A DNA stretch of 25,523 nucleotides. Source: an uncultured archaeon (GTDB lineage Archaea; Thermoproteota; Nitrososphaeria; Nitrososphaerales; Gagatemarchaeaceae). Where the stretch lies: positions 1 to 25,523 of the forward strand of contig CAWFOU010000010.1 of assembly GCA_963817525.1 (NCBI GenBank). Reading direction: 5' to 3'. Position numbers and translations under genes: made by a program. Below are positions 6,641-22,263 of this stretch, piece by piece (positions within the stretch are counted from its first letter, which is position 1; each line of letters begins with the position of its first letter). The notes beneath the pieces were generated by a model. It had not been told where the DNA came from. It did no database searches and saw nothing but the letters and a program-made list of their open reading frames with translations.

Positions 6641-6654
6641 GGAAGACAAAGCGA

Positions 6655-8705: not shown

Positions 8706-10379
8706 ATGGCACAGATTGTTGACATCTCCCTAGACCTAAGGAAGGAAAGTGCAAAGGGTAGATTCATTCGACAGACGCAGTCCATTTGCCCAGACTGCAA
8801 CAAGATACTCCCGGCGATAGTTTTCGAGCGCGATAACAAGGTCTTCATGACCAAGACGTGCCCAGAGCACGGAGAGACAGAGGAGCTATACTTCGGCGAC
8901 TACCAGATGTACGCGAAGTTCGCCCGCTTCTGGAAGGACGGGAAGGGGACCCATGCGCCCAACGTGCCCATGGACGTCTGCTCCTGCCCGGCCAACTGCG
9001 GATTATGCTCCAATCACCTCTCCCACACGGGCCTGTCCAACATCATCATCACGAACAGGTGCGACCTGACGTGCTGGTACTGCTTCTTCTACGTCAAGAA
9101 GGGTCTCGAGGGCGCATACGTCTACGAGCCCACGATGGACCAGGTGAGGGAGATGGCCAGGACGCTCAAGTCCGAGAGGCCAGTCCCAGGTAACTCGGTC
9201 CAGCTCACAGGCGGCGAGCCGACCATCCGCCCGGAGCTCCCGGAGATCATCAGAATGATGCACGAGGAGGGCATCGACCACGTCCAGCTCAACACGAACG
9301 GCATCAACCTTGCGCTAGACCCGTCCCTCGCGGGGCGGCTACACGAGGCAGGTGTCTCCAACCTCTACATGTCGTTCGACGGCACTAGCCCGAAGACAAA
9401 CCCCAAGAACCACTGGGAGGCGCCCTACACGCTCGAGGCGTGCAGGAAGAACAACATCGGCGTCGTTCTCGTCCCGACTGTCATCAAGACTGTAAACGAC
9501 CATGAGCTCGGCTCGATCATCGACTTTGGGCACAAGTATCTCGGCACGGTCCACGCGGTCAACTTCCAACCAGTCTCGCTGACCGGCAGGATGACCAAGA
9601 AGGAGAGGGACAAGTACCGCATCACGATACCCGACTGCATCAAGAGGATCGAGGAGCAGACCAACGGCGACATCACGTCGGACGGCTGGTTCCCAGTCCC
9701 GTCGTGCTCTCCGCTGACGAGCTTCATCGAGGCCTTCACCAAGAAGGAGCAGTATGAGCTCTCGATACACTTCGCGTGCGGCGCGGGGACCTACGTCTTC
9801 GAGGACGCCGAGACAAAGAAGCTCGTGCCTCTGACGAACTTCGTCGACATCCAGGGGCTCATCGAGTATCTGGAGGAGAAGACGGAGGAGATCTACTCAG
9901 GCACCAACAGGTACGTGGTGGCCGGGAAGGTCCTCACCCAGATGTCCCGCTTCGTCAACAAGGAGAAGCAGCCCAAGGGCATGAGCTTCGCGAAGATGAT
10001 CACCAACGCGCTGATCAGGCACGACTACTCGGCCATCGGTGACTTCCACACGAAGAGCATGTTCATCGGCATGATGCACTTCCAAGACAAATATAATCAG
10101 GACGAGGAGAGGCTCCAACGCTGCGACATCCACTACCTCACCCCCGACCTGAGGATCATTCCCTTCTGCTCGTTCAACGTCATCCCCGAGTGGTACAGGG
10201 ACAAGATCCAGCAAAAGTACGGCCTGCCAATCGAGGCCTGGGAAGCGAAGAACGGGAAGAAGCTCGAGGACGGGCTCTACCGTGGCACCCTGAGGCGGGG
10301 CACCCACCACGCGGGCTGCGGCTGCGCGGTCGGCGAGCAGGGCGAGGAAGTCCACATCCAGCCTATCACAGGAACTTAG
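8706..10379 (+). CDS. tes: Tetraether lipid synthase (GDGT-MAS, MJ0619-type radical SAM enzyme)
   Basis: N-terminal rubredoxin-like SICPDC...KTCPEHG, CPANCGLC..H cluster motif, radical SAM CDLTCWYCF, QLTGGEPT, NFQPVSLTGR, HFACG, C-terminal RCDIHY.TPD.RIIPFC. Confidence 0.92.
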   Translation: MAQIVDISLDLRKESAKGRFIRQTQSICPDCNKILPAIVFERDNKVFMTKTCPEHGETEELYFGDYQMYAKFARFWKDGKGTHAPNVPMDVCSCPANCGLCSNHLSHTGLSNIIITNRCDLTCWYCFFYVKKGLEGAYVYEPTMDQVREMARTLKSERPVPGNSVQLTGGEPTIRPELPEIIRMMHEEGIDHVQLNTNGINLALDPSLAGRLHEAGVSNLYMSFDGTSPKTNPKNHWEAPYTLEACRKNNIGVVLVPTVIKTVNDHELGSIIDFGHKYLGTVHAVNFQPVSLTGRMTKKERDKYRITIPDCIKRIEEQTNGDITSDGWFPVPSCSPLTSFIEAFTKKEQYELSIHFACGAGTYVFEDAETKKLVPLTNFVDIQGLIEYLEEKTEEIYSGTNRYVVAGKVLTQMSRFVNKEKQPKGMSFAKMITNALIRHDYSAIGDFHTKSMFIGMMHFQDKYNQDEERLQRCDIHYLTPDLRIIPFCSFNVIPEWYRDKIQQKYGLPIEAWEAKNGKKLEDGLYRGTLRRGTHHAGCGCAVGEQGEEVHIQPITGT

Positions 10380-10440
10380 GGAATCGATACGCCGGTCAAG
10401 TTCGAAACCGGCAGCTTGCACATTATGAATGTGCTAGAAT

Positions 10441-10478
10441 TGATTCTGGAAAGACCGGACCTGGTTTCTCCAGAATCA
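10441..10478. terminator. Hairpin between convergent tes and LAGLIDADG genes
   Basis: TGATTCTGGA ... TCCAGAATCA perfect 10-bp stem. Confidence 0.45.
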
Positions 10479-10505
10479 GCGCATCAAATCAGGCTCTCGC
10501 CTACC

Positions 10506-11693
10506 CTAGGATTTAGAAAAAGAGGGAGGGGCAGGAATGAGATCTCGTCGGATTGCATGTCGAGTTAGCTGCCCGTATCTATAGCTCCCAATGATTGGAT
10601 TGAAGAGAGATAGTCGAACTGCGTCACGTGTTAGGATTCTGACTTGGCTTGGTTGATTTTGTGGATAGGTGTGAGCGTCGAGTCCTAGAGTTTCGAAGAG
10701 TTCTTTGTAAAAGGCGGAGTTCGGGACGCTAGCGATTTCGGCATAGTATCCATGTATATCCACATACCCATCAGAGTCGGCGAGTCCCTGAAGGAATGCT
10801 ATGATTAGACTCCTGGGACACCTCTTCATCCATGCCATGTCGAGTTTGTGAGTGCTGGTTGTCTCTCCTTCCTTCAAACCGAGACAGACCTGGAACGCCC
10901 ACGTAATGACATTGCTCGAGATCGAATTCCATCGAACCACTTTGCCATCCGATGCAATCTGGTGCGACGGGATTCCTACGCACTCCAGCGCCAACTGCAC
11001 GTACCTTAGCACTCTGAAGTTGCTCTCCCTGTGCGTCATCATAGTCGCCATTGACGTCTTGCGGTAGTGTCTTGCCCTGGGCTCGTTGTGGACATACTGC
11101 TTTCCCGCGTCTCCCACCAAGAACCCCAACAAGAACCAGAACAACTCCGCCTTGTGCTCCTGAGCCCACGCGCTCGTCAGTCCGAAGAAACGAAGTGCTT
11201 CGCTCTCCTCACTGACCGGCGGGAACTGCTTCAGGAACTCGAGAATCTCGTCATAGGAGCGGATGCGTTCTGGGACCTGCAGAGTTCTCGGGTAGGGATT
11301 GGTCGGTTTGGGCGTGCGGTCGAATATCCACTTCCGTCCTTCCAGAGGCCTTCCAATTCGCGCAGAGTTGAGGTACATCTGCACGAGGTTCGGGCGCCAG
11401 TTGAAGCCGGAGAGCGTCCTCGAGACTACCGCCTGGTCGATGCGGTGCTTTGATGCGATTGTTTTTTGTTCCTGTCCTTGTGATCTGAGCCTCCACACGT
11501 CCCCGTGCCTTTTCCACTGCGCGATGTCCCTTTCGTCGTAGACGACGTTCCAAAACTCCTCCATGAACTTCAGGTCGTTCCATGACGAGAGCTTCTCACG
11601 AAGCAGCTCTAGCTCATCGGGCGTGTACTTCGGCCAGGGCGTGCGGTCTTTCCATTCTCCCTTGCTTTTTCCGTATCCGCCTTTCCGCATCAA
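10506..11693 (-). CDS. Free-standing double-motif LAGLIDADG homing endonuclease-like protein with N-terminal HTH
   Basis: WFLLGFLVGDAG and AFLQGLADSDGYV motifs about 110 aa apart; HTH-like GQEQKTIASKHRIDQAVVSRTL; no intein splicing motifs. Confidence 0.85.
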   Translation of the reverse strand: MMRKGGYGKSKGEWKDRTPWPKYTPDELELLREKLSSWNDLKFMEEFWNVVYDERDIAQWKRHGDVWRLRSQGQEQKTIASKHRIDQAVVSRTLSGFNWRPNLVQMYLNSARIGRPLEGRKWIFDRTPKPTNPYPRTLQVPERIRSYDEILEFLKQFPPVSEESEALRFFGLTSAWAQEHKAELFWFLLGFLVGDAGKQYVHNEPRARHYRKTSMATMMTHRESNFRVLRYVQLALECVGIPSHQIASDGKVVRWNSISSNVITWAFQVCLGLKEGETTSTHKLDMAWMKRCPRSLIIAFLQGLADSDGYVDIHGYYAEIASVPNSAFYKELFETLGLDAHTYPQNQPSQVRILTRDAVRLSLFNPIIGSYRYGQLTRHAIRRDLIPAPPSFSKS

Positions 11694-11780
11694 TTCTTTT
11701 GCGCATTTCCATATTTAGTCGCCACCTACGTCGGATTGATACCGGAAAACACGCGCACTGACAGTGATGGTAATCTATCC

Positions 11781-11813
11781 TGCGGCTTCAACGTCATCCC
11801 CGAGTGGTACAGG
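11781..11813 (+). repeat. tes 3' remnant 1
   Basis: TTCAACGTCATCCCCGAGTGGTACAGG (11787-11813) is a 27-bp exact copy of 10173-10199 (FNVIPEWYR). Confidence 0.92.
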
Positions 11814-11922
11814 AATTTCCTGGCAATGCGCGAATAGCCTATTCGCATCAGACGACCAGACTGGAGAATCAGCCGGAGGTATCTACGCTTATATCTCCGG
11901 TCCTACTTCTTCGATGACTCGG

Positions 11923-12207
11923 ATGTCGTCGGACGCATCTAAGGAGGAGTCGACGGAGTGGGCGAATCGGGTCTTGGACGCGCGCATCTTCAAAGCGAAA
12001 GGGGTCTCGCCAAACTCTCGTTGGGCAAAGAACTACTCAAAGATGATGCGCGAACCTCTGAAGCCCGAAGAATGGCGCGCATTCCAGGAGAAGCTCAAGG
12101 ACCCCACTTTCGCCGAGGAATGGATGGATAAAGTGATTTCTGGATGGCATCGCCGGAGGACACCGGTCTCCTCAAGGCAACCCTCGAACAGGTCGAAGTC
12201 TCGCTAA
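11923..12207 (+). CDS. Hypothetical small protein A1 (two-gene module, copy 1)
   Basis: CTTATAT box at 11888; C-terminus KLKDPTFAEEWMDKVISGWHRRR resembles 17002-17157. Confidence 0.65.
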   Translation: MSSDASKEESTEWANRVLDARIFKAKGVSPNSRWAKNYSKMMREPLKPEEWRAFQEKLKDPTFAEEWMDKVISGWHRRRTPVSSRQPSNRSKSR

Positions 12208-12332
12208 TTCGCAGGATACCTTTCGCCGCTCTCAGACGCCCGGAAACGTTGTGGGAAGAGTTCGCAATGCTTGACACTGTCCTTGAGTTGACAATGAAGC
12301 TCGCTCTACTATCTGCTCGAGCGCGAGCCTAA
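12144..12332 (+). CDS. Hypothetical small protein B1 (two-gene module, copy 1)
   Basis: Overlaps A1; LEQVE...PETLWEEFAMLDTVLEL resembles the frameshifted ORF at 17150-17318. Confidence 0.6.
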   Translation: MASPEDTGLLKATLEQVEVSLIRRIPFAALRRPETLWEEFAMLDTVLELTMKLALLSARARA

Positions 12333-12367
12333 GGAATAGAATCTAGTCGCGAGAAATGACCGTTGCG

Positions 12368-12424
12368 TCCCCGAGTTGGCGAGCAGGGCGAGGAAGCCAT
12401 ATCCAGCCGATCACCCGGGCCTAG
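12368..12424 (+). repeat. tes 3' remnant 2
   Basis: GGCGAGCAGGGCGAGGAAG-CCATATCCAGCCGATCACCCGGGCCTAG aligns to tes 10332-10379 (GEQGEE.HIQPIT..stop). Confidence 0.9.
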
Positions 12425-12708
12425 TCGGAACGCTCTGTCCCTAGGCTAGGCCTCTCTTGAGACATCTTTGTGCCTGGTCGACGTTAGTTGTGAACAGCGA
12501 ATCGACTGCACCGCTGAAATTGGGATTCCGACCCGTATGGGTTAATAATCTGACGAGAATTTGTAACAACTGCTATATACATCCGAACGCCCACTATCGC
12601 CTATGGCGTTCCCTGCCCACGAAGAGGGGATGGGCGCGGCGAGCGCCATCAACGTCTACGGAATCGTTTCCGCCTCCAGTCGGTTGCATGAGGCGGGAAA
12701 ACTAGCCT

Positions 12709-13716
12709 TTGACTTCAAACTTCCACCAATTTCTCAAGACAACGTCCCCCCGCAAGCGTACGAGTGAATCTCGTTTGGACCGCATCGACATCAAGGTGCT
12801 CGGGGGGCTGTCCCGTGGGACTTCCAGCATTGGAAGCCAACCCGTGTTGCAAGGTGTCTTTGGGAGGATTGCGAAGAGGCTTGTTCTTGACGAAGACACC
12901 GTCAGGAAGCGAGTAGACAGATTGGAATCTGCAGGAATATTTCGAGGATGGCAACTCGTGGTCAATCCGGGCGTTCTGGGGCTCAAATTATACGGCGCCC
13001 AGGTAACGGTTAGTCCGCAGCTGGGAATACAGGACGCAGTCCGCAAGATCATGCTTGTCCAAGGTGTTACATCAATCGCCTGCGAGGTGGTCGATACGCT
13101 CGGTATTGGAATAATCTGCGAAAACGAACTTGTCTTCAGAAATAGGATCGAACTAATCTCAGAGTTGGCGGGGACGAAAGAGTTAACGACATATGCGGTG
13201 AACTACCCACAACCAGAGGTCCAGCTGAGTCGCACGGACTGGCAAGTCATCAATGCGTTCAGACCGAATCCGTTGATTCGATACTCCGAGGTGGCCGACA
13301 AGCTTGGGATTTCAAGCAGGACAGTCCAGAGGAGGCTGAAGAAGCTCGCCGTGAGCAAGGCCATCTTCTTTCGACCAATAATCGATGTCAGTCGCTTTGA
13401 GGGTGCATCGTCAGTCTCTCTCTTTGTGTCCTACGCCTCAGATGAGTTCAAACGCGAGGTTGACCGAAGCATATTCGGAAGATTCGAGGACTACATCCTT
13501 CGGGCTGGATGGGGAAGTGCAAGCCATGGCTATTTCGAGTTCATCATCCCGAACATCCATGTCGTAAAGGAGATTGTCGATTGGACCCGCAGCCTGCGGG
13601 GAGTCAAAGAATTGCGATTGAATCTCAAATACGACAGCCTTAGCCTTTACGAAAACGCGCTGGATGAAATCATTGCCAGGCAAGGTCAAGGCCCGTCGCC
13701 CCGCCGGCCGAACTGA
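12709..13716 (+). CDS. AsnC/Lrp-family transcriptional regulator with two HTH domains
   Basis: LDRIDIKVL...IAKRLVLDEDTVRKRVDRLESAG and LSRTDWQVI...YSEVADKLGISSRTVQRRLKKL. Confidence 0.88.
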   Translation: MTSNFHQFLKTTSPRKRTSESRLDRIDIKVLGGLSRGTSSIGSQPVLQGVFGRIAKRLVLDEDTVRKRVDRLESAGIFRGWQLVVNPGVLGLKLYGAQVTVSPQLGIQDAVRKIMLVQGVTSIACEVVDTLGIGIICENELVFRNRIELISELAGTKELTTYAVNYPQPEVQLSRTDWQVINAFRPNPLIRYSEVADKLGISSRTVQRRLKKLAVSKAIFFRPIIDVSRFEGASSVSLFVSYASDEFKREVDRSIFGRFEDYILRAGWGSASHGYFEFIIPNIHVVKEIVDWTRSLRGVKELRLNLKYDSLSLYENALDEIIARQGQGPSPRRPN

Positions 13717-13968
13717 AAAACTACCATTGGTCTCGTCGGCGCTGCAATGAAGACGGAGGCAGTTCGTATCCCTGCTATAGGCTCGAGTCAGCCTAGAGAG
13801 CCCCCGTGTCGGCGCCCCCCGCCTACTGGGGCTCCATGCGCTAGCACGGATAGCCTGTTCACCTAATCCGAGTCGGGGAATACGAATACCGACCCTTGTC
13901 GTGTCGGAATTCCCTACCATGTCGCGGCGAATGCATAATATCCGATTGCTCGACTTTTTTTATCACGG

Positions 13969-16491
13969 ATGACTAACGTATTACCGAAACGAAACAAGAA
14001 CGCATTTACGAAAAGCATTAAGAAAACATTAAGCAACACATCAATCCGCGCAATCGCACTAAGCCTTCTTTTCGTCGTCTCAGGGATTGGAGCGTCAGTG
14101 CTCCTCAACCCAGCCGCAGCCACGCCCAACACGGCAGCGCCCTCGGCCGCGGCCCCCGTTGCAGCCCAGCCGGCGCTGACGCAGGCGGAGGCGAATTGGG
14201 AGTTCCCGAACGGCAACGCCTTCAACCAGGACTACAACCCCCAAAGCCAGATTAACAGCTCCAACATCCAGTACCTGGGGCTGAGCTGGATCTATCCGTT
14301 GCCCACCCAGCCGACCTCCTTGTCGGCTCTGTCAGCTTTCGGCGGTGACATCGGAATGGCGATTATCATCGCCAACGGCACTGCCTTCGCAACCACGCAG
14401 TTCGACGAGACCATCGCCTTCAACGTGGCCAACGGCGACGTGCTCTGGACCTTCCTCACGCCTCTCGCGGTCAACCAGACCGCAGGCGAGTCCACAGGCC
14501 CGGTCCCGCTGCACGACCACGACGGCAACGAGTGGTTCTCTACCGCGACGTTCGGCTCCGGCGTGTCCGGCCCGACGCTGTGGTTCCAAGGAGAGAACAA
14601 CCACGTCTACGCCATCGACGCCCTCAATGGCAAACAGGAGCTGAACTTCAGCGACTTCACCGGCCTCAACATGGTGGCAGGCAACAACCCGCAGACCATA
14701 TACAACGGAATTGGCGCCTCGAACATCGTCGTCAACCCGACACTGGGCATCCTGGTGTCTGGGCATGACGCCGAATCAGACGCCGACAACGGGAGGGGCT
14801 TCTTCGCGGGATGGAACCTAAACACCAACCCGGTCACCATGAAGTGGATCACCTACGACGTTCCTCCCCAACCAGGGAGCCCAACGGCGTCGCTGAACCC
14901 CTACTTCGACCAGCAGTTGATCGCCAACATGACCACCGCGACCACCTTCTACCCTGGTGAGAACGGCTCTACCAACGGGTACACCACCCCGACGGAAGTG
15001 GCAGGAGGCCTGCTCGTCAACAACAACGACGACATCGTCGTCAACTGGAAGGCGCTGTCTCCGACTCAGCTCAACACAACCCTCTACAACGACTGGGGAC
15101 AGTCCGGCCAGACGGCCCAGTGCCTCGCCATCGACGGCGGCGGCTCTACGGGCTCCACAGGCTCCGCATGGGGCGGCGCTTGGCTCGTGGGCTCTGGCCA
15201 ATCGGCGGGGATGGTCTTCCTAGGGACGAACAACAAGGACCCGTTCACAGGGCCTTGCGACCCAGGACCTGACCTCTGGTCAGCTTCAGTCCTCGGACTC
15301 AACATCACCACCGGGCAGATAGTCTGGGGCTTCCAGGCAACCACGCACGACGTCTGGGACTACGACTGCTCCTGGTACCAAGCACTGGCCAACGTCACCC
15401 TCTCGGGCGTCAACACCGAGGTCATCCTGAAGACGTGCAAGGACGGATACCTCTTCGAGATCAATGCCGTGACTGGCAACCTCATCTGGGCGTGGGACCC
15501 ACCCGCGAACTCAGAGCAGTCAGGACCAAGCAGATGTCCAGTCTGCTACCCGATGAACCCGATGAACGCATCACAGACCGGCATCGACTTCCCATCCGCA
15601 CTCACCAACTGCTACCCAGCATACACCATCGCCTGCGACAGGGGCTCTCAGCCTCCGTTCCTCCAGTGGCCATCTGAACTGGCCGGCTTCGAGGACGAGC
15701 AGGCGTTCGACCCAGCAACCGGGGACATCTACGCCACCTCGCACGTGGTGCCCCTGTACATGGGTTACTTCGGCCTGAACGCGTCCACCTACTTCACCTC
15801 CACGGGTGAAGGAGGCGTGCCGTGTCCGAGCTGCGGAACCCTGTACGACAACGCTACACTCTGGTCAATCAACGCACAGACTGGAGCCGTCAACTGGGAC
15901 CACCAAGTTGCGAATCTGCAGGGATACCGTGGCCAGACCGACGTCAGCGGTAACGTCGTATTCAACGTCTTGTCCTCGGGCGACATCGTCATGACCAACG
16001 CCGCGACAGGCGCACTCATCAGAGACTACTACATCGGCGCGCCGATGGACCAGGGAGTGACGATCGGAGCGTCAGTAAACGGTCAGGAGTACATCCTGAC
16101 GCCGGTAGGGACGTGCAGCATCGAAGCCGTAGGGACGTGCCCTGGCACAACGCCAGGAGACATCGTGGCCCTGAGCCTGCAGAACCTCCCGCCTTCCACC
16201 GCGAGCACTAGCACAACCACAGTGACAGCAACATCCACCACTACAGCGACTTCCACAACGACAGCAGTATCCACGACCACCGCCACGGCATCGGGCGCTA
16301 CCGTCACGGTAACGACTGGAGCCAACGGGCAGACAACCACAGTCACCATGAGCGGAGTGACCTCGACGGTCACCTCCACATCCACAACATCAAGCAGCAA
16401 CACAGCGCTATACGCAGTAGCTATAGTCGCCGTGATCTTCATCATAGCTACGGGCTATCTTGCCATGCGTGGCAGGAAGCCCGCCTCCTAA
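13969..16491 (+). CDS. Membrane-anchored PQQ-dependent dehydrogenase-like beta-propeller protein
   Basis: Signal peptide; NWEFPNGN...YNPQSQINSSNIQYLGLSW, Trp-docking repeats (AFNVANGDVLW, GLNITTGQIVW, EINAVTGNLIW), FQATTHDVWDYD, KTCKDGYLF; S/T stalk and C-terminal TM with basic tail. Confidence 0.9.
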   Translation: MTNVLPKRNKNAFTKSIKKTLSNTSIRAIALSLLFVVSGIGASVLLNPAAATPNTAAPSAAAPVAAQPALTQAEANWEFPNGNAFNQDYNPQSQINSSNIQYLGLSWIYPLPTQPTSLSALSAFGGDIGMAIIIANGTAFATTQFDETIAFNVANGDVLWTFLTPLAVNQTAGESTGPVPLHDHDGNEWFSTATFGSGVSGPTLWFQGENNHVYAIDALNGKQELNFSDFTGLNMVAGNNPQTIYNGIGASNIVVNPTLGILVSGHDAESDADNGRGFFAGWNLNTNPVTMKWITYDVPPQPGSPTASLNPYFDQQLIANMTTATTFYPGENGSTNGYTTPTEVAGGLLVNNNDDIVVNWKALSPTQLNTTLYNDWGQSGQTAQCLAIDGGGSTGSTGSAWGGAWLVGSGQSAGMVFLGTNNKDPFTGPCDPGPDLWSASVLGLNITTGQIVWGFQATTHDVWDYDCSWYQALANVTLSGVNTEVILKTCKDGYLFEINAVTGNLIWAWDPPANSEQSGPSRCPVCYPMNPMNASQTGIDFPSALTNCYPAYTIACDRGSQPPFLQWPSELAGFEDEQAFDPATGDIYATSHVVPLYMGYFGLNASTYFTSTGEGGVPCPSCGTLYDNATLWSINAQTGAVNWDHQVANLQGYRGQTDVSGNVVFNVLSSGDIVMTNAATGALIRDYYIGAPMDQGVTIGASVNGQEYILTPVGTCSIEAVGTCPGTTPGDIVALSLQNLPPSTASTSTTTVTATSTTTATSTTTAVSTTTATASGATVTVTTGANGQTTTVTMSGVTSTVTSTSTTSSSNTALYAVAIVAVIFIIATGYLAMRGRKPAS

Positions 16492-16513
16492 TTTTAGGAG
16501 ATACAACAAACCA

Positions 16514-16551
16514 GGCCCCCCGACCGGGGGCATCTCCCCTTTTTGCTTTTC
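16514..16551 (+). terminator. Hairpin plus T-tract downstream of the PQQ gene
   Basis: GCCCCC-cgacc-GGGGGC followed by CTTTTTGCTTTT. Confidence 0.55.
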
Positions 16552-16695
16552 AAAAACGGCCGCCCGGGCCGGGGCACCCCGCCTTCGTCATCAGAATCGC
16601 TGGGGACCCCGAGGCCCGGGCAACTCCACGGAGTGCTCTATTAAGCTCTTGTCGACAAGCGGAAACGCTCGATGAGCTATGTCAGAGCCTTGCTG

Positions 16696-16913
16696 CCCTT
16701 CCCAACTTCAAGGTCATCCACGAGTGGTACAGGGACAAGATACAGCAAAAGTACGGCCTGCCCATCGAGGCATCGGAAGCGAAGAACGGGAAGAAGCTCG
16801 AGGACGGGCTCTACCGTGGCACTCTAAGGAGGGGCACGCACCACGCTGGCTGCGGCTGCGCTGTGGGCGAGCAGGGCGAGGAAGTCCACATCCAGCCGAT
16901 TTCGGGGACCTAG
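16696..16913 (+). pseudogene. tes 3' remnant 3 (complete last ~70 codons)
   Basis: Colinear with tes 10161-10379; encodes FKVIHEWYRDKIQQKYGLPIE...GEQGEEVHIQPISGT-stop with no start codon. Confidence 0.96.
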
Positions 16914-17001
16914 ACGGGTCGGGCCTCCCAACGCCAGAAGCCTCTCTATTTCCGTCGCTCCGGATGTGCGCTTATATTTCCCCTCCTCTTCTTTACCGAG
17001 A

Positions 17002-17157
17002 ATGAAGCGTTCAGAGCAGGAGCACATTGAGGACCTGTCATACCTCAGGGCCAAGCTCGCGCAGCCTGAACCAGAAATCGATGCGTGGCTAAACGGAATA
17101 GTGGATGCATGGATTGCCACGCGCAGGACCAAGAGGTCGCGCGCCAAGCGTGTCTGA
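17002..17157 (+). CDS. Hypothetical small protein A2 (two-gene module, copy 2)
   Basis: CTTATAT box 31 nt upstream; KLAQPEPEIDAWLNGIVDAWIATRR resembles A1. Confidence 0.65.
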   Translation: MKRSEQEHIEDLSYLRAKLAQPEPEIDAWLNGIVDAWIATRRTKRSRAKRV

Positions 17158-17318
17158 CGAGAACGACAGGACGGAAGTTCGACTGCTGGTCGAGCGGCTA
17201 GAACCGGTGATGCTTTGGAGAGTTGCTACCGCAGCGCGGCTTTCCTCCTGAGACCCTTCCCGACGAGATTCTGCTGTTGGAAAGCGTAACGGTGCTGCGG
17301 AAAGAGCTCAACCCCTGA
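17150..17318 (+). pseudogene. Hypothetical small protein B2 (one extra base between about 17213 and 17246)
   Basis: GTG start overlapping A2 stop; MSDENDRTEVRLLVERLEPVML...PETLPDEILLLESVTVLRKELNP. Confidence 0.55.
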
Positions 17319-17329
17319 ACTATTTTGCA

Positions 17330-17376
17330 AGGGCGAGGAAGTCCACATCGAGCCAGTCGGGAGTGCATCAACCTGA
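17330..17376 (+). repeat. tes 3' remnant 4
   Basis: AGGGCGAGGAAGTCCACATC 20-bp exact match to tes 10339-10358, continuing GEEVHIEPVGSAST-stop. Confidence 0.85.
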
Positions 17377-17425
17377 CTTCGCTAAGGTTCGAATGCGTCA
17401 GGTTGCGCTTGATCTGCTAGGCAGT

Positions 17426-17965
17426 TCACTTGGAGCCAGCGACCAGTGATTCGAATTCGATAACACACAAGTTTTCTGAAACCGTCTCCCTGCGGACCTT
17501 CCCCAAGAGCCTTACAAATATTGCTTCCAGCGCCCCTGCGTAGTATACTGACCAGTTTCTACCCATCTTCTGCCCGACCACTATGATGTGCTTTCTCTCC
17601 TTTACGGTATGCTCGAAGGTGAATCTGCCGCCATAGGCTCCGAGGTTCTTCATCAGCCTGTCAGCCGACTCGACTGACACGGTGGAGTATTCCGCCAACA
17701 GGTTGGGCAAGAACAGCTCACGCCCAGCCCACCTCCCCATCTCACGGGCCTTCTCCTCGCTTTGCTCGGCCATCAGCTTCACCAGGAGCAAAGACGGGAC
17801 CGAGACAAGCCCCCTGTTCGATAAGGCCCTGTCCCACTCAACGTACTTCCTGAGGGCCTTGTTCATGACCTGGCTATTGGAAAGTCTCTCCTCCTTTGCG
17901 ATCTTCTCCATCGCCTCGTCGATGTCGGTCTCGACCCTGAATGTGCGGGCCTTGCTCCTCTTCAA
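17426..17965 (-). CDS. Ribbon-helix-helix protein with C-terminal V4R-like ligand domain (thaumarchaeal paralogue family)
   Basis: RTFRVETDIDEAMEKIAKEERLSNSQVMNKALRKYVEWD...MGRNWSVYY...IEFE. Confidence 0.82.
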   Translation of the reverse strand: MKRSKARTFRVETDIDEAMEKIAKEERLSNSQVMNKALRKYVEWDRALSNRGLVSVPSLLLVKLMAEQSEEKAREMGRWAGRELFLPNLLAEYSTVSVESADRLMKNLGAYGGRFTFEHTVKERKHIIVVGQKMGRNWSVYYAGALEAIFVRLLGKVRRETVSENLCVIEFESLVAGSK

Positions 17966-18504
17966 TCGACCCTCGACGACTTTGGCATGTCGAATTCGAG
18001 CGCCACGAGCTCTTCGGTCATCCTGGACTTGGTGTTAAGACCCAAAGTCTTGCCGAACAGTGATTCAACTACCCCCATGTAGAAGGCGGACCATTTCATT
18101 CCTCCTGAGTGACGGATTGTGATGACGTTCTTCGAATCTGAGGTCACGTGATGGAATTGGAACCTGGCCATATAGCGCGAAATGAGTTTGATGACCTCCA
18201 GAGCGGAGGTCAGCGTCACCTCGCCGGAGATAGACGTCATGAACGGCATCAAGACATCGCTGTCTACTGATTCTCCGAGGCTCCTGGCTTCTTCTAATGT
18301 CTGCTTGTCCATGAGTCTGCCCAAGGTTATGGGGCTTATCACGACCAGGGCCGCTCTCTCAGCAAGCCCGTCCCACTCCACCAATCTCCTCAGAGCTCTC
18401 CCGGCGATGACGTTGACCGATTCTCCTGATTCGTCGGCCATCCGCTTAAGGGCCGCATCGACATCCTCGTCGAGCCTAAGCGTGCGGGTTACGCTCCCTG
18501 ACAC
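17962..18504 (-). CDS. Ribbon-helix-helix plus V4R-like domain protein
   Basis: VTRTLRLDEDVDAALKRMADESGESVNVIAGRALRRLVEWD...IRHSGGMKWSAFY; GTG start chosen (ORF is open to 18552). Confidence 0.82.
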   Translation of the reverse strand: MSGSVTRTLRLDEDVDAALKRMADESGESVNVIAGRALRRLVEWDGLAERAALVVISPITLGRLMDKQTLEEARSLGESVDSDVLMPFMTSISGEVTLTSALEVIKLISRYMARFQFHHVTSDSKNVITIRHSGGMKWSAFYMGVVESLFGKTLGLNTKSRMTEELVALEFDMPKSSRVD

Positions 18505-18621
18505 AGTTTCCTTTCTGGACCAACTTCCGTATATGTATTCGCTTGCGTACAAATGACTCCGCTTGTAAACCTAGAGTACTTCTTGAATGGTCGGCATCCC
18601 AAACGAAGGGAACCAGAAAGC

Positions 18622-19026
18622 ATGACGGACAACCAGAGGAAGGAGGATGTCACCTACGGGGCTGCCAGTCAAGTCATCAAGGCCCTCTTCGACTCGGACA
18701 GGCGCATCCGTTATGGCGCAGTTATCGGCGAAAAAGGAGAAGAAATCGTCGGAGGAATGAGGCCAGGAATCAAGTCGCTCGAATCCGAACGCGAGAGCAG
18801 CAGGCTCAGGATACAGACACTCATAGGCATGGCGATCAACCGGAATTGGAACGAACTGCTCGGAGATGCCGACTACATAATCGTGCATAGAAGCAAGATA
18901 GTCGTCTTCATCTTTCCTCTATCCGGCATGAAGTCGCTGCTAGTGTCTGCCGAGCCAGACTACCCATTGAAGAGGCTGGGCGAAATATCTGACGCTGCCC
19001 AGGCTATCCCGAAAGAGCTGCGGTGA
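18622..19026 (+). CDS. Roadblock/profilin-like (DUF6659-type) protein
   Basis: DRRIRYGAVIGEKGEEIVGGMRPGIKSL...LGDADYIIVHRSKIVVFIFP...LLVSAEP. Confidence 0.8.
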   Translation: MTDNQRKEDVTYGAASQVIKALFDSDRRIRYGAVIGEKGEEIVGGMRPGIKSLESERESSRLRIQTLIGMAINRNWNELLGDADYIIVHRSKIVVFIFPLSGMKSLLVSAEPDYPLKRLGEISDAAQAIPKELR

Positions 19027-19029
19027 CCA

Positions 19030-19728
19030 TTGACCAATGACGAGTTGGTCAGCCAGTCAATCCTGAGCGGGTTGAAGGCTACCGGCCACGAAACTATGCA
19101 ATTGGTCCTCGACGTCTTGCGGACCCGCTATGGATTCACTCTGGAAGACGATGCGAAAGATCCGGTGAGACTTGGAAAAGGACTCAGAGGAATACTCGGA
19201 GGGGCTGGAGCCCGAACGGTCATCGACAGAATCCTCGAAGACTTACCCGATCAAAGTTCTCCTCCGGAGTATTACATCAGATTCATGGATGGGCTGAAGG
19301 CCTACGGGGAAAGCCTATCTTCCAAACCGGACGACGAGGCCGACAGAGGACTTGCGCCCGGGAACGTGCTGAAGCGGCCTAAAGGGGCCTTCCAGGTCCC
19401 ATTGAAGGGGTTCCCGCCTGACTTTACGCAGAAGATGGTTGAAGCGGTAGTCAGAGGACTTTCACCTTTGGGCGACTCAGGGAGAGAGGCGGCCATTTAC
19501 CTCCTAGAGCAGCAGTACAACGTCAGTGTGACAGACGCTTTCACAAATCCAAGGAGTTTTCTTTCAGGCCTAACAGGAATGTTCGGGCTCGGCGCACATT
19601 ATTTGGAATCTTCTATCATAGACGAGATAACCGGCGCATTTGCTTTGTCCGCAAGGCCTGATTCGCTGCCAGTGGCCGTCAGGGAGGCAGGCCGAAAATA
19701 CAAAAAGGCCGGAAAAGGGTCAGAGTAA
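19030..19728 (+). CDS. Protein with two small helical archaeal output-type domains (DUF3227/NitrOD5-like)
   Basis: Two repeats: GLKATG...LRTRYG...DPVRLGKGLRGILG.GARTVI and GLSPLGDSGREAAIYLLEQQY...NPRSFLSGLTGMFGLGAHYLE. Confidence 0.7.
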   Translation: MTNDELVSQSILSGLKATGHETMQLVLDVLRTRYGFTLEDDAKDPVRLGKGLRGILGGAGARTVIDRILEDLPDQSSPPEYYIRFMDGLKAYGESLSSKPDDEADRGLAPGNVLKRPKGAFQVPLKGFPPDFTQKMVEAVVRGLSPLGDSGREAAIYLLEQQYNVSVTDAFTNPRSFLSGLTGMFGLGAHYLESSIIDEITGAFALSARPDSLPVAVREAGRKYKKAGKGSE

Positions 19729-19834
19729 GATAACTCAACTACCGCGTGGTCAATGCAGAGAACCGATTACAGAGTCGACACCCCCGAGCGGGGAAGGTCG
19801 GCTCAGAATCGAGGGCAGTCCAAGGGGTTGGCTT

Positions 19835-20356
19835 CTAGGCCTCAAAACGAGCGATGCAAACCGCGTCAGTGCACTCGAACTTCACCTGCTTTGATAGGAG
19901 ATCGTGTAATATCTCTTTCACCAATCCCTGGTAGAAGTTCGTCCATTTTCGACCTTGATCGTGTCTAAACACGAGAATGTGCACGTTTCCTTCCTGCACG
20001 TCGTCAAATACAAACCTATCCGTGTAGAAGGCGACTCTTTTGAACGTGGAGATGAACGCGGTCGCGGTGACCTCTCCGAAGAGATACTCGGTCAGAGGCC
20101 TGGCGAACTCCCTCGCTGTGAACCTGCCCAGTTCGGTGCACTTGTCGGCGTCGAACTCGTCAATCAGTTTTTTGACCATTATCTCCGGCACTTCCATATA
20201 CCCTATCTTCCTCCCGGGGATATCCCACTCGATCAGCTTCCTCATCGTCCTGTTAATCAAGAAGTTTGTCGTCACCTTATCTTCCCTTGCTCTCCTCTGA
20301 ATCGCCTCGTCCAGGTCAGAGTCCAGCCTCACTGTCCTCGTCCTGGTCTTGGGCAT
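19835..20356 (-). CDS. Ribbon-helix-helix plus V4R-like domain protein (third paralogue)
   Basis: TRTVRLDSDLDEAIQRRAREDKVTTNFLINRTMRKLIEWD...FRHDQGRKWTNFY. Confidence 0.82.
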   Translation of the reverse strand: MPKTRTRTVRLDSDLDEAIQRRAREDKVTTNFLINRTMRKLIEWDIPGRKIGYMEVPEIMVKKLIDEFDADKCTELGRFTAREFARPLTEYLFGEVTATAFISTFKRVAFYTDRFVFDDVQEGNVHILVFRHDQGRKWTNFYQGLVKEILHDLLSKQVKFECTDAVCIARFEA

Positions 20357-20513
20357 CCCCTGTCCGCGTATCAAGCCTTCAATTTACGTGTTCCTTTGTG
20401 CCCTAATGTGTGTATCAGAGTACAAAGTGCGCATCCGACTCGATATCTCACCTGAAGTAGACGGAGCCCACTTAGCCTCCCCCAGATTCAGCTGCACTAG
20501 CCTGGATTGTGCC

Positions 20514-20924
20514 GTGGGGGAACTGATTACGTCGAAGAAGAGGGATGCTGAGAGCGAGATTGCTTATCGAATAGTGAAGGCGACGTTCGAGTCGGACCGG
20601 CGAATCCGATATTGCGCATTGATCGGCGAAAAGGGAGAGGAGCTGGTCGGTGGGATGAGACCTGGGATCAGGCCGCACGAGACCGAACTCGAGAGCAGCA
20701 GGCTCAGGCTGCAGACGCTCGTAGGCATGGCGATGAACAGGAATTGGGACACCCTGCTGGGTGACGCGGACTACATAATAGCTCACAGAAGCAAGGTGGT
20801 GCTCTTCCTCTTCCCTCTTTCCAGTCTAAGGTTGCTTTTGGTTTCAGCCGAGCCAAACTATCCGCTGAGGAAGTTCCGAACTATCCTTCGCATCGTCAAA
20901 GGGCGTCCCGAAAAACTCCGGTGA
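20514..20924 (+). CDS. Roadblock/profilin-like (DUF6659-type) protein, paralogue of 18622-19026
   Basis: FESDRRIRYCALIGEKGEELVGGMRPGI...LLGDADYIIAHRSKVVLFLFP; start uncertain. Confidence 0.8.
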   Translation: MGELITSKKRDAESEIAYRIVKATFESDRRIRYCALIGEKGEELVGGMRPGIRPHETELESSRLRLQTLVGMAMNRNWDTLLGDADYIIAHRSKVVLFLFPLSSLRLLLVSAEPNYPLRKFRTILRIVKGRPEKLR

Positions 20925-20946
20925 TGCCGAGAGCATCAGTGCGACC

Positions 20947-21252
20947 ATGAGCCTACCATCTGAGGAGCTAGTCCGCGACGCCGTGTTGGCGGGGTTGAGG
21001 AAACTGGGCGACGACGTCCCGCGCGTCGTCTTGTACTTCTTGCAGACCGAACGCGGAGTCGCATTGGAGGACTTGGCTGGCGATCCAGCTAGGCTCGGCG
21101 ATGCCCTCAAAGCGGTATTTGGGGAAGCCGGAGCGCGGATTGTCATCGAAAATATCCTGGACGAAGCTGGCAAACATCCGTCTCATCCATCTCGCTATCA
21201 TCGGTTCATGGAAGGCCTGGCATCCTACAAGGAATCTCTCTCGCTCGCCTGA
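20947..21252 (+). CDS. Single-domain DUF3227/NitrOD5-like protein, paralogue of the 19030 N-terminal domain
   Basis: EELVRDAVLAGLRKLG...DPARLGDALKAVFGEAGARIVIENILD...RFMEGLASYKESLS. Confidence 0.75.
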   Translation: MSLPSEELVRDAVLAGLRKLGDDVPRVVLYFLQTERGVALEDLAGDPARLGDALKAVFGEAGARIVIENILDEAGKHPSHPSRYHRFMEGLASYKESLSLA

Positions 21253-21286
21253 GGGGGTTCAGTTCCTCGCGGTAATGGCTCGTAAC

Positions 21287-21331
21287 CGAGCAGGGCGAGC
21301 AAGTCCACATCCGGCCCATCCCAGGGAATAG
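21287..21331 (+). repeat. tes 3' remnant 5
   Basis: CGAGCAGGGCGAGCAAGTCCACATCCGGCCCATCCCAGGGAATAG aligns to tes 10334-10379 (EQGEQVHIRPIPG). Confidence 0.88.
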
Positions 21332-21694
21332 ACATCCCTCGCCCGCCCAAGACCAGCTGCTTCCTGTTGGGCCTCTGGAAAAGGCGTTCGCCACGATTCG
21401 GCGAGAGACTGGGTTTCCCGTCCTCAATGCTTTTCCGTTTGAGGGCCTCCGAGGGCACAATGTCGACCCAATTCACGTAAACTGGCAGACCCCAGGGTGG
21501 CGGAAAATCCGCATCCTCTGGAAGCCATACCTTTGCATGACTAAGGTACGAAACAGTTGATGTAATTACATATAATTATACCTGAGTGATAATTAAGTAT
21601 TCAAGGAGGCCGCCGCTCGCCGAGCTGGCCCCTTCGCAGACTAGCCAGCATGCGGCCGGGTCTTCGCGACCTCGTGCGCTGGCGCCGGGCCTGG

Positions 21695-22221
21695 TCAGCC
21701 CGAGACTACCCTGTAGTCGTCCTCGAGCCTGACGATGTCGGCCTCGTCGAAGTCCCCCTTCGAGACTTCGAGGATCTCCGCGCTCTCTTCCTTGCAGCCG
21801 AGGCGATGGACCATCAACCGAGGGACGACGACGTGCGAGTCCTTCGCGAGGGGCACCTCTTCGAGCTTGCCGCCGCGCTTGAAGATCGCATATGCGCGGC
21901 CGGAGAGACAATACCACTCCTCGGTGCGGTGGCGGTGGTATTGAAGGCTGAGCCGCGACTTTGCGTAGACGTGGATGATCTTCACGGTGAGCGCCTCGCC
22001 GGGCTCGTGCGCGAGGAGCTCGCCCTCCGGGTGGTAGGTCGATCGGAGCTCCTCGAGGAAGCTCGCCTCCCAGGATGGGGTGGGAACCTTTCCCTGAAGA
22101 TAGACCGAGAAGGACCCCCACGGGCGCCGCTCGATTGTGTCGGGCGTCGAGAGTATCGTGCGATTAGCTCGTTCGTTGCTTGAAGACGTTTTTGGTCGCC
22201 CCGGGCAGCTTTTCCAAGCAT
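21695..22221 (-). CDS. Cupin protein, type II mannose-6-phosphate isomerase C-terminal-like (probable frameshift near 22150)
   Basis: In frame upstream of 21985: ERRPWGSF...TVKIIHV...RLSLQYHRHRTEEWYCLSG...HRL...ILEVS.G...EADIVRLEDDY. Confidence 0.82.
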
Positions 22222-22263
22222 GCGTATATACGATGCGAAAACCTTTTGATTGGAGGCAGGACT

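Follow-up and report, generated by a model that had tools for sequence, protein, structure and literature searches.

Displaced copies of the tes 3' end mark a variable gene island in Gagatemarchaeaceae, a plausible case of accretion without an integrase

How does the 3' end of one protein-coding gene come to lie, in five displaced copies, among blocks of other genes? This question is raised by a stretch of 25,523 nucleotides (hereafter, the window) from an uncultured archaeon of the Gagatemarchaeaceae (assembly GCA_963817525.1, contig CAWFOU010000010.1). The gene concerned is tes, encoding tetraether lipid synthase (8706-10379, + strand), a radical SAM protein with an N-terminal zinc ribbon. 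It is intact, and its product matches Pfam Radical_SAM (5e-26), Zn_ribbon_HMPTM (6.5e-20), and the NCBIfam equivalog NF045702 'tetraether lipid synthase Tes' (690 bits vs. a cut-off of 450, amino acids 23-508 covered). The unit that recurs downstream is the resident tail (10166-10379, + strand), with a near-invariant core at 10341-10363. The original prediction, made from sequence alone, had placed five direct-orientation copies of this tail behind tes. When the last 300 nt of the gene (10080-10379) were used as a blastn query against the whole genome, all five were recovered in the window, every one on the + strand, i.e., in tes orientation; the predicted coordinates were correct to within a few bases, and the extents of copies 2, 4, and 5 slightly too generous. 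Copy 1 (11780-11813; blastn 11787-11813, 27/27 identical) comprises tes nt 1461-1494 only, and comparison of its junction with contig C7 of the same genome leads to the inference that the remainder was deleted between two ACAGG repeats. Copy 2 (12361-12424; blastn 12375-12414, 90%) consists of approx. 15 nt of the tail start joined to its last approx. 50 nt, i.e., it has an internal deletion. Copy 3 (16677-16913) is long, spanning approx. tes nt 1460-1674; blastn aligns 207 nt of it at 91% (16707-16913), and tblastn extends the match to 16677. Copy 4 (17325-17376; blastn 17330-17354, 96%; 17325-17363 in another search) is short and retains only the core, and copy 5 (21287-21331; blastn 21287-21325, 90%) is also short. 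That the tail is repeated is further shown by the 23-mer GGCGAGGAAGTCCACATCCAGCC, which, with up to three mismatches, occurs four times in the window vs. zero expected; none of 100 dinucleotide-preserving shuffles contained any match.

The blocks separated by the tail copies are unrelated to one another. The newest cassette (10380-11779) occurs in the window contig but not in C7 or C14, two other contigs of the same genome; it holds a LAGLIDADG gene (10506-11693, - strand). It is followed by a cassette (11814-12360, + strand) whose small ORF (11917-12207, about 96 aa) belongs to no known family and recurs between tail copies in genome G018 and after a tail copy in G020. The cassette at 12425-16676 (+ strand), common to C7 at 91%, contains an 82-aa ORF, an AsnC-type HTH protein (12709-13716), and a PQQ beta-propeller protein (13969-16491). 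Block X (16914-17324, + strand), with a 51-aa ORF at 17002-17157, is the ancestral tes-downstream flank, and the cassette at 17377-21286 consists of small paralogous genes, in place of which C7 has a 1.2-kb block with a YVTN-repeat surface protein. Beyond the last tail lies a conserved distal flank (21332-24461) with a 177-aa ORF (21650-22183) and a GNAT acetyltransferase (23403-23993); G012, G017, and G018 carry this flank on the far side of their arrays, and in G008, which has no array, it lies 2.6 kb downstream of tes. Two predicted blocks, the LAGLIDADG gene and AsnC plus PQQ, were confirmed, and a predicted 'RHH/roadblock' cluster at 17377-21286 has weak support only (RHH_1, E 0.007; DUF6659 and NitrOD5 under their cut-offs). 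Across the arrays, blocks measure 0.4-4.9 kb and carry ordinary cargo, including an ABC transporter pair, PQQ proteins, and surface proteins.

It had been proposed that the tes tail is a reused landing pad that builds an accretion island, which would be supported by relatives with variable block number and order and by empty sites, and refuted by a genome-wide dispersed repeat or by one fixed arrangement. Block polymorphism is shown both within and between species. Within a genome of 2.8 Mb, the window contig represents a strain variant of a locus that the main contig, C7 (1.28 Mb), carries with other blocks. The two tes genes differ at 63 nucleotides, all synonymous, and their proteins are identical. 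In C7, the tes stop codon (43864) directly abuts the sequence that begins at 11816 in the window; the LAGLIDADG block is thus present in one haplotype and missing from the other. Furthermore, a 4-kb block is swapped for the 1.2-kb one exactly at tail copy 5 (C7 homology restarts 7 nt ahead of it), and copy 4, which is also found behind block X in G012 and G014, is lost in C7. Arrays lie behind tes in at least 15 of the 23 genomes of the genus (13 from one survey, plus G016 and G001 from other searches); 10 genomes of other genera, as well as G008 of the same genus, showed none. Blocks ending in tail copies number seven in each of G012, G014, and G018, three in G000-C7, and one or two in G020, and G014 has two additional blocks inserted between parts that are contiguous in G012. 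Some blocks are shared at high identity: one with an 89-aa ORF is 94% identical between G017 and G020, and the small-ORF block is 91.7% identical between G018 (6014-6495) and G020 (4033-4512), whose tails are just 84-85% alike. Neither refutation was borne out, since blocks differ between haplotypes and species, and since the tail copies of G007, G012, G014, and G015 all lie within about 40 kb downstream of tes. Together with the displacement described below, these variable blocks support the landing-pad proposal.

Displacement is shown at the 16.7-kb copy, because this copy and the DNA following it (16696-17318) are colinear, at 77%, with the tes tail and flank of two relatives, G012 and G020. 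The 51-aa ORF lies behind tes itself in G012 (1772-1903), G020 (1780-1911), and G014 (1577-1717), and behind the displaced copy in G000. Copy 3 is the ancestral tail, displaced by inserted DNA, as had been predicted for the old 3' end. In the newest block, however, the 5' part of the downstream copy is likely to be donor-derived rather than expelled native tail, because the Ser codon of copy 1, GGC, differs by a single change from AGC, the codon in G012 (and in G014 and G008), where both resident tails have TCG. Import from other lineages is shown by the long copies. Copy 3 differs from the resident tail in 14 synonymous and 4 non-synonymous codons, and the synonymous/non-synonymous counts of the long copies vs. 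a working tail are 14/4, 23/3, 19/4, 16/1, 20/5, 24/11, 19/9, 16/4, 23/3, and 23/4; differences are mostly synonymous in 10/10, against a neutral expectation of 78% non-synonymous (P 7e-7 to 8e-13). This count covers the long copies analysed without frameshift trouble; G022, whose long copy has 3 synonymous and 20 non-synonymous differences, attributed to frameshifts in its assembly, was left out. Working tails of different species differ in 24-28 synonymous and 0-2 non-synonymous codons. Because the long copies differ mainly at synonymous sites, each of them was once a working tail in another lineage.

These counts bear on two alternative explanations. The first is that the tail and downstream DNA were duplicated locally in tandem and then decayed, or that the array is a mixed-bin assembly artefact. 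The bin, with 8.75% contamination, contains the locus in three versions, of which the window is one, and repeats break short-read assemblies (the G011 and G004 contigs end inside the tail). However, in-situ copies should diverge with 78% non-synonymous changes and the opposite is observed, the blocks between copies are mutually unrelated, and arrays occur in independent assemblies, including the single-contig genome G007 and contig C7. A check against reads, suggested with the original prediction, could draw only on short contigs of four public runs; these are 100% identical to parts of the window, both through copy 4 and from copy 3 on into block X, and gave no tail joints. Duplication or artefact is therefore highly improbable. 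The second alternative is that the copies are retained as small Tes C-terminal proteins or as regulatory or termination signals for the cassettes. The long copies are dominated by synonymous differences, several are open reading frames of 82-197 aa, and the last 40-60 nt are preferentially retained. Nonetheless, start, end, or frame is lost as decay grows with distance from tes in G014 and G012 (an in-frame stop at G012 5900, a lost end at G012 3105, a gap at G014 3478), copies 1 and 2 of the window carry deletions, copy 3 in C7 lacks 150 nt that the window retains, and there is no fold signal. Retention for function can hardly be upheld.

The newest block deserves separate consideration. Its gene, convergent with tes, encodes a free-standing double-LAGLIDADG homing-endonuclease-like protein of 395 aa with an N-terminal HTH region. 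LAGLIDADG_3 was matched, at best with E 6.2e-8, in 6/18 family members, the two motif Asp residues do not vary across the 18 sequences (G194 D195; S307 D308 G309), and an AF2 model (pLDDT 84.4) has as its top Foldseek matches PI-SceI, I-DmoI (TM 0.57-0.66 normalised to target), I-Tsp061I, and WhiA. The endonuclease fold is shown, and nuclease activity is inferred. Gene-end duplication around paralogues is shown at two other conserved genes. Behind the aEF-1alpha gene, a paralogue is enclosed by a 76-nt duplication of the gene's end; it is present in 8 and absent from 11 of 19 genomes of the genus, and in four of those 11 the flank that follows the repeat in G000 comes directly after the stop codon. 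At a tRNA gene, the 5' half is perfectly duplicated over 42 nt, with another paralogue inside the duplication. Such flanking duplications are found at only 3 of the 30 loci holding a family member. Although it had been listed as cargo, the gene is probably a mobile agent in its own right.

It could be argued that homing explains the whole array, each tail copy recording a separate past invasion by a homing-endonuclease element with a tes end of its own, with neighbouring genes hitch-hiking and endonuclease genes later decaying and disappearing, in line with the homing cycle. In favour of such serial homing, the newest block is an element of this kind with presence/absence polymorphism, the aEF-1alpha and tRNA paralogues share duplication and patchy distribution, family members occur downstream of tes in G015, G016, and G007, and three synonymous differences between the window and C7 tes cluster at nt 1444-1458, beside the copy boundary at 1461. 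However, no trace of the endonuclease gene was found in the arrays of G012, G014, G018, G020, or C7, and G014 (82% complete) has a seven-copy array and no family member that could be found. Moreover, homing into a naive allele copies the donor structure and by itself adds no new kinds of block, and the ABC transporter pair, PQQ proteins, and surface proteins are atypical cargo. Serial homing is thus an unlikely source of the array.

The remaining alternative, which stays possible, is site-specific integration: elements with a tyrosine or other integrase would use an attB core near the tes end and pile up in tandem, their integrase genes having later been deleted, or a single recombinase encoded elsewhere acting on every cassette. 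Direct repeats on both sides of blocks, at a protein gene's 3' end, are the trace left by such elements, and of 68 thaumarchaeal elements with defined sites, 14 lie in protein-gene 3' ends, with tandem arrays known (PMC6563490). Moreover, nearly all short copies retain the same last 40-60 nt (approx. tes nt 1625-1670), long copies begin at a few discrete tes positions (about 1391, 1416, and 1461), and a permuted pair in G018 (tes nt 1552-1674 ... 1442-1562) has an 11-nt overlap, the kind expected of an att core. Against this, it is shown that the arrays scanned lack recombinase genes. A scan of 36 window ORFs revealed neither a tyrosine nor a serine recombinase, and 74 ORFs from the window, other arrays, and loci with stray tail pieces gave no recombinase either; the only DDE transposases there lie upstream of tes (window 3197-8126). 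PF00589 matches in G000, G007, G012, G014, and G018 are all distant from the tes loci, and ARAGORN found no tRNA in the window; the predicted absence of both recombinase and tRNA therefore held. The tail core has no inverted repeat or hairpin exceeding shuffles and no attC-like hairpin, so that the term 'integron-like' holds for layout only, and the core 20-mer was not found in viral contigs. The small blocks with ordinary cargo also speak against integrated elements, as do duplications of 210-290 nt, which far exceed the atts reported for archaea (29-69 bp in crenarchaeal genomes; 'generally short' in thaumarchaea, one of 13 bp, PMC6563490).

On balance, the evidence leans towards an integrase-free accretion island that grows by recombination on portable tes-tail copies, with the last 210-290 nt of the gene as anchor. 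Incoming DNA from related lineages, either the region downstream of a neighbour's tes or a block cut out between a pair of tail copies, would bring its own tail copy, which would recombine with the resident tail in shifted register; new genes would thus end up right behind an intact tes, and a tail copy would remain on their far side. Subsequent recombination or deletion between tail copies could cause blocks to be lost, swapped, or shortened. Joining would most likely be the work of host homologous recombination, which the near-invariant stretch before the stop codon would help, and the LAGLIDADG endonuclease encoded in the newest block may assist there by making a double-strand break. The identity of the cutting and joining enzyme and the linear or circular nature of the intermediates are inferred, and homologous exchange between tails merely 85-90% alike is an assumption of the model; the short contigs of public runs revealed neither a recombination intermediate nor a circle or alternative joint. 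The fixed last 40-60 nt and the discrete starts of the long copies are equally compatible with a site-specific enzyme. G020 has tail pieces without a 3' end on other contigs; these, as well as the permuted G018 pair, are not accounted for by the favoured model.

Among known systems, the thaumarchaeal mobile elements integrated in the 3'-distal part of protein-coding genes (Krupovic et al. 2019, PMC6563490) share with the tes island the phylum, the conserved protein gene 3' end as target, flanking direct repeats, a restored reading frame, and tandem re-use of one site. However, they are proviruses, casposons, ICEs, or cryptic elements with integrases or casposases and short att/TSD sites (13 bp in the example), whereas the tes island has duplications of 40-290 nt, no recombinase, blocks of 0.4-4.9 kb, and up to seven copies in a row. 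Neither tes nor 'radical SAM' appears in the main text of that paper, a search that did not cover the supplementary target table or a possible 'Zn-finger protein' target. The newest block resembles the free-standing homing endonuclease genes with C-terminal host-gene duplication in the mitochondria of fungi, such as those at cob and atp6 of Endoconidiophora resinifera (PMC6279837), where a LAGLIDADG ORF likewise lies between an intact gene and a partial C-terminal copy. That case, however, concerns a eukaryote organelle where each gene has only a single such copy and there is no cargo array, whereas the archaeal family is chromosomal, has three targets (tes, aEF-1alpha, and tRNA), and is associated at tes with a multi-cassette island.

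Three further systems resemble the island in layout. Integrons, including reported archaeal ones, carry promoter-proximal, mostly single-gene cassettes with a recurring site and proximal entry. The tes island shares the cassette row separated by a recurring site and the proximal entry of new cassettes, but it has no intI beside the array, and its recurring site is the end of a coding gene rather than an attC hairpin. In tRNA-gene accretion islands, such as the tycheposon islands of Prochlorococcus, elements carry recombinases of their own, with tRNA or tmRNA genes as targets; as at tes, partial remnants of the target gene mark successive insertions in a strain-variable island, and the recombinases and the targets are what set tycheposons apart. 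Finally, the rhs and cdiA toxin genes have C-terminal displacement arrays in which the new tips code for different toxins and come with immunity genes. There, as at tes, incoming 3' ends push older ones downstream; the route is recombination on a conserved stretch of the main gene, which is inferred for tes. Unlike those tips, however, the tes tails all code for one and the same Tes end, with 0-2 amino-acid differences from species to species, and it is between them that the payload is carried.

The core of the original prediction, that the 3' end of tes recurs downstream of the gene in five direct copies, was upheld: blastn recovers all five in the window, on the + strand (copy 1 at 11780-11813, copy 2 at 12361-12424, copy 3 at 16677-16913, copy 4 at 17325-17376 and copy 5 at 21287-21331; blastn extents 11787-11813, 12375-12414, 16707-16913, 17330-17354 and 21287-21325). 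With up to three mismatches, a 23-nt core of the tail is found four times in the window but never in 100 shuffles. Copy 1 retains tes nt 1461-1494, joined at ACAGG, and copy 2 retains approximately 15 nt of the tail start together with the last 50 nt; both are likely to be long copies carrying internal deletions at short repeats. The case that would have refuted the prediction, a repeat dispersed throughout the genome, was not borne out, as the copies cluster downstream of tes. In the source genome, the remaining copies lie behind the tes genes of the main contig C7 and the small contig C14, apart from two stray pieces on C7 (76.4 kb and 403.8 kb). In four related genomes (G007, G012, G014 and G015), all copies are located within approximately 40 kb downstream of tes, and in G018, in which tes is unassembled, one array lies where a contig starts and a further four pieces are found at a second locus, surrounded by housekeeping genes. 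With the window tail as the query, extra copies are convincing in 13 of the 23 genomes of the genus; other queries add two (G016 and G001), and the largest arrays comprise seven copies (G012, G014 and G018). No tail copies were found within 18 kb in G008, within 11 kb in G024, or in the 1.1-1.5 kb examined in each of ten genomes of other genera.

No gene-end array with multiple copies other than that of tes was found in the source genome, where the other clusters of repeats belong to the promoters or 5' ends of paralogous genes. One locus on contig C1 (776494-791063) contains five direct copies of an intergenic repeat of approximately 60 nt with a short stem, spread over 14.5 kb; each lies upstream of minus-strand genes and, without an Rfam match, they resemble promoter or leader repeats rather than gene ends. 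Direct repeats in two copies, 61-89 nt long, 85-98% identical and spaced 1.4-11 kb apart, occur at C1 964967/976012, C7 392009/393426 and C8 72494/77301, and these could possibly mark further inserted elements.

The source genome (2.82 Mb, 15 contigs, estimated contamination 8.75%) is carried by two large contigs, and most of the small ones duplicate regions of C1 or C7 in diverged form; the bin is a strain mixture. Its file contains three versions of the tes locus, on C7, on C14 and on contig C10, of which the window is the entire length. C14 is 99.5% identical to C7 51159-34273, and the window is colinear with C7 49633-34563 at 89-96% identity, with different inserts. Given this colinearity and a bin that includes diverged second copies, the window is therefore the tes locus of a second strain, which provides a built-in comparison. 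The window tes (8706-10379) is a bona fide tetraether synthase gene with a radical-SAM core and an N-terminal zinc ribbon, and its product matches the NF045702 equivalog (690 bits, cut-off 450) as well as PF04055 and PF23545. It differs from the C7 allele (45537-43864) at 63 of 1674 bases, all synonymous, and the two proteins are identical. The curated NCBIfam model of Tes stops at aa 508; beyond it lies a lineage-specific extension, the final 49 residues, which is also the portion copied most frequently. A separate NCBIfam model covers intein-containing Tes, and hence tes is already known to harbour selfish elements of the endonuclease type elsewhere. Upstream of tes, a 5.4-kb insert missing from C7 (3185-8602) has repeats at 82-99% identity and carries three IS6/IS240-type DDE transposase genes, of which that at 7473-8126 is full and those at 3197-3568 and 4261-4572 are partial. 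The neighbouring peptidase A4 gene (1618-3180) contains internal tandem repeats with 12-39-nt spacings (2404-2670) and a 285-nt repeat (2620-3174). It should be noted that ORFs were called greedily and that most genomes compared are incomplete bins.

Displacement of the old tes tail downstream is shown for the lineage of the source genome. Copy 3 and its flank (16696-17318) align without a break with the tes tail and downstream flank of G012 and G020, and in G012, G014 and G020 the 51-aa ORF that lies behind this copy in the window (17002-17157) comes first after tes. It follows from this colinearity and ORF order that 4.9 kb (C7) to 6.3 kb (window) was inserted in tes at approximately nt 1460, leaving a complete tail in front and the old tail pushed back. 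The insert lies between direct repeats of its target and tes remains intact, which satisfies one of the two criteria for an integrase-borne integrative element at a gene 3' end, the other being a recombinase encoded inside the element. The blocks themselves turn over. The LAGLIDADG block between tes and copy 1 is present in the window and missing from C7 and C14; the 4-kb block at 17279-21279 is swapped in C7 for 1.2 kb with a YVTN-repeat surface protein, homology restarting 7 nt ahead of copy 5; and copy 3 measures 237 nt in the window versus 62 nt in C7. Likewise, G012 2104-3383 corresponds to G014 3698-4961, with two additional blocks in between in G014, each closed by a long tail copy. A block with a small ORF follows tes immediately in C7, is flanked by two copies in the window and G018, and comes after a YVTN gene in G020; between G018 and G020 this block is 91.7% identical, with tails 84-85% alike. 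A block with an 89-aa ORF is 94% identical between G017 and G020, and the distal flank beyond the arrays is conserved. Likeness between the blocks after copies 1 and 3, named modules A1 and A2 in the original prediction, was not established (blastp E 0.029, 6/35 identical).

An assembly artefact is very unlikely, as such arrays recur in independent assemblies and exact short contigs were found in four public runs. Parts of the window stretch occur in five public runs from two studies, and the four that were examined hold short contigs only, in which no joints at tails were found, the contigs being too short for spanning support or circles. In two short-read bins, the contigs break off inside the tail.

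The codon differences in the copies reveal their origin. Ten long copies differ from the working tail by 14-24 synonymous and 1-11 non-synonymous codons, whereas 78% non-synonymous differences would be expected from random change (P from 7e-7 to 8e-13); the reference was the tes of the same genome for six copies and that of G012 for the four from G018. An eleventh long copy, from G022, gives the opposite count and was left out since tes in that assembly contains frameshifts. Between species, working tails show 24-28 synonymous and 0-2 non-synonymous codon differences. The synonymous bias therefore indicates that the tails diverged in service in separate lineages and were later brought together: the long copies are once-working tails of other lineages, and local duplication of the tail in situ is rejected by the same bias. 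Codon variants of the copies in G007 and G015 match their own clade, and the copies of G014 group with its own tes. The farther a copy lies from tes, the more non-synonymous changes, gaps and truncations it carries. This decay argues against the suggestion that the copies are kept for a function, which is very unlikely. The 5' part of copy 1 has the Ser codon GGC, one change from AGC of G012, versus TCG in the resident tail, a foreign-type codon that fits a crossover to the right of it. Furthermore, three synonymous differences between the two haplotypes (tes nt 1444, 1455 and 1458) cluster beside the copy 1 boundary at nt 1461, where approximately 0.6 would be expected; this is possibly relevant, though merely a hint, and no step in divergence along tes was seen between the two haplotypes.

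No dedicated enzyme was found to account for these rearrangements. Among 74 ORFs scanned in the window, the other arrays and the neighbourhoods of stray pieces, there are no recombinases, and DDE transposases occur solely upstream of tes. Neither tyrosine nor serine recombinases nor casposases were found among the cassette ORFs scanned in G000 (the source genome), G012, G014, G018 and G020, although some small ORFs remain unscanned, and all PF00589 (tyrosine recombinase) matches in G000, G007, G012, G014 and G018 are far from the tes loci. The cargo is ordinary; the scanned ORFs encode regulators, PQQ and YVTN propellers, a PKD protein, an ABC-2 transporter pair, a methyltransferase, endonuclease V, RibD_C, a HEPN/MNT pair and many unknowns. 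The PQQ propeller gene (13969-16491) has at least ten paralogues in the source genome (72-89% nucleotide identity), five of them in tandem at C7 1-14271. The variety of the cargo, without endonuclease remnants, makes it unlikely that serial homing alone, with each block brought in by its own endonuclease, built the island.

Three known kinds of system were considered and set aside. An IntI-type tyrosine recombinase was not found beside the array (window ORFs; PF00589 in five genomes), and DNA folds of three tail ends on both strands revealed no attC-like hairpin beyond shuffles (for the resident tail and copy 3, z-scores lie between +0.25 and +0.96; for copy 5, they are -1.3 and -1.5). Without an integrase or an attC-like fold, the integron reading is rejected. 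A virus or plasmid as the carrier of the tail is rejected on the absence from viral contigs of both the core 20-mer (0 matches) and relatives of the endonuclease. A diversity-generating retroelement is not supported either: there is no reverse transcriptase among the scanned window ORFs, most differences are synonymous and the end of Tes is conserved.

Tail pieces also occur away from the arrays, namely at C7 76346-76464 and 403695-403821 in the source genome and at C13 41022-41171 and C68 34719-34842 in G020. Over approximately 48 nt, the downstream flank of the first matches that of a G018 copy, the second adjoins a HEPN/MNT pair, and both G020 pieces lack the 3' end of the tail. The second locus of G018 (C3 441344-489511) holds four pieces amid purD-like, ilvD, Lhr and SMC genes, and a tblastx comparison for synteny with C7 gave only noise. 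Two of its pieces form a permuted pair, in which tes nt 1552-1674 is followed by 3.2 kb of small HTH genes and then by nt 1442-1562, with an 11-nt overlap, an arrangement that is unexplained. A weak LAGLIDADG match beside a G018 piece (E 0.0086) was dropped, as it fails the family profile; no relatives of it were found in the source genome, the tes-downstream regions or nine other loci.

The reading that we favour is an integrase-free accretion island, in which the cutting and joining enzyme is inferred. Tail copies would serve as portable homology: imported DNA bearing a copy would pair with the resident tail in a shifted register, and a block would be gained right behind an intact tes by a double crossover (linear DNA) or by a single crossover (a circle excised between two copies), while pairing of copies within a genome would delete or swap blocks. 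For its own block, the break may come from the endonuclease, and the first duplication may go back to an element of this type. This view would account for the lack of a recombinase, for the common start positions of long copies (the start is inherited with the copy), for the synonymous bias and for blocks more alike than their surroundings. It would perhaps also account for the survival of the last 40-60 nt, where the longest stretch identical between species lies. A site-specific enzyme that acts in trans or has since been lost remains a possible alternative, for which the discrete boundaries, the preserved core and the 11-nt overlap of the permuted pair speak.

The newest block, between tes and copy 1, very likely carries a homing-endonuclease gene (10506-11693, - strand), although this rests on model prediction and cleavage is inferred. 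Its 395-aa product has two LAGLIDADG motifs, the Asp of each being invariant in 18 relatives, and its structure model (pLDDT 84.4) matches PI-SceI, I-DmoI and I-Tsp061I, and also the non-catalytic WhiA; the criterion of a double LAGLIDADG fold is thus satisfied. Pfam LAGLIDADG_3 is detected in 6 of the 18 relatives, with the window protein at 21.1 bits falling under the cut-off of 22.5. The family is present in 18 of 23 genomes of the genus, and, of 150 further genomes sampled from the order, 2 contain close relatives (E ≤ 1e-40); its 58 database relatives are labelled 'hypothetical protein' wherever the source gives a name, and source labels point to Nitrososphaerota. At 17 of 30 loci examined, the member lies beside a highly conserved gene, the other 13 being unclassified. 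Eight members are convergent with the 3' end of the S28e/L7Ae ribosomal protein genes, at least seven with that of aEF-1alpha and one, in the window, with that of tes; a further one lies just upstream of a tRNA gene. As the criterion for a free-standing homing endonuclease requires, presence is polymorphic, both at tes (window versus C7 and C14) and behind aEF-1alpha, where the gene is found in 8 of 19 genomes of the genus and not in 11, the latter including the closest relatives of the source genome; in 4 of these 11, the post-repeat flank of the source genome directly follows the stop codon. The aEF-1alpha paralogue of the source genome lies, together with a 115-aa ORF (C1 195244-197462), inside a 76-nt duplication of the gene end with four synonymous differences, one non-synonymous difference and the stop lost. 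In G019, the member is enclosed by a perfect 42-nt repeat of the 5' half of an intron-bearing tRNA gene (C90 locus L058, 1341-1382 and 2400-2441), which ARAGORN missed and Rfam detected (45 bits). Such flanking duplications of gene parts were found at only 3 of the 30 loci with a family member. The S28e/L7Ae group of eight genomes (L062, L064, L065, L069, L070, L075, L076 and L077) has no flanking duplication, and its L062 member overlaps the 3' end; these might be old or domesticated copies.

A bolder reading, which is less likely than not and in which cleavage is likewise inferred, is that a free-standing LAGLIDADG gene and the end copy of an essential gene (tes, aEF-1alpha or tRNA) together form an integrase-free mobile unit of a kind not yet described, present in Nitrososphaerota. 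It would cut the intact gene of naive genomes and be integrated by repair, and left-over copies would provide the portable homology for a genus-wide, integron-like store of cassettes behind tes.

Gene flow in Nitrososphaerota is poorly understood, and the usual explanation for islands is an integrase acting at a tRNA gene. The tes island, kept throughout a genus and varying between strains, is anchored on the end of an essential lipid gene; it bears clear signs of import from other species, and no recombinase was found in it. It offers a natural locus for measuring exchange between lineages, and a candidate way of capturing genes for which homology, perhaps aided by a homing endonuclease, would be enough. 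The approximately 60 uncharacterised archaeal LAGLIDADG proteins have predictable targets and could be tested at the bench. A practical warning is that the tail repeat is a point at which tes contigs of metagenome bins become broken or mixed.

The phylum already offers examples of integration at protein-gene 3' ends and of tandem arrays, but these involve integrases, short sites and other targets (PMC6563490); tes and radical SAM are absent from the main text of that study, whose target table was not covered. In fungal mitochondria, endonuclease ORFs are known to separate a gene from a duplicate of its C-terminal part (PMC6279837). In the literature searched, no relevant account pairing tetraether synthase with an integrase was found. 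What is likely to be new, as a variant on known kinds, is an accretion island that is anchored on a gene end, lacks an integrase and is coupled to a new archaeal family of free-standing endonucleases.
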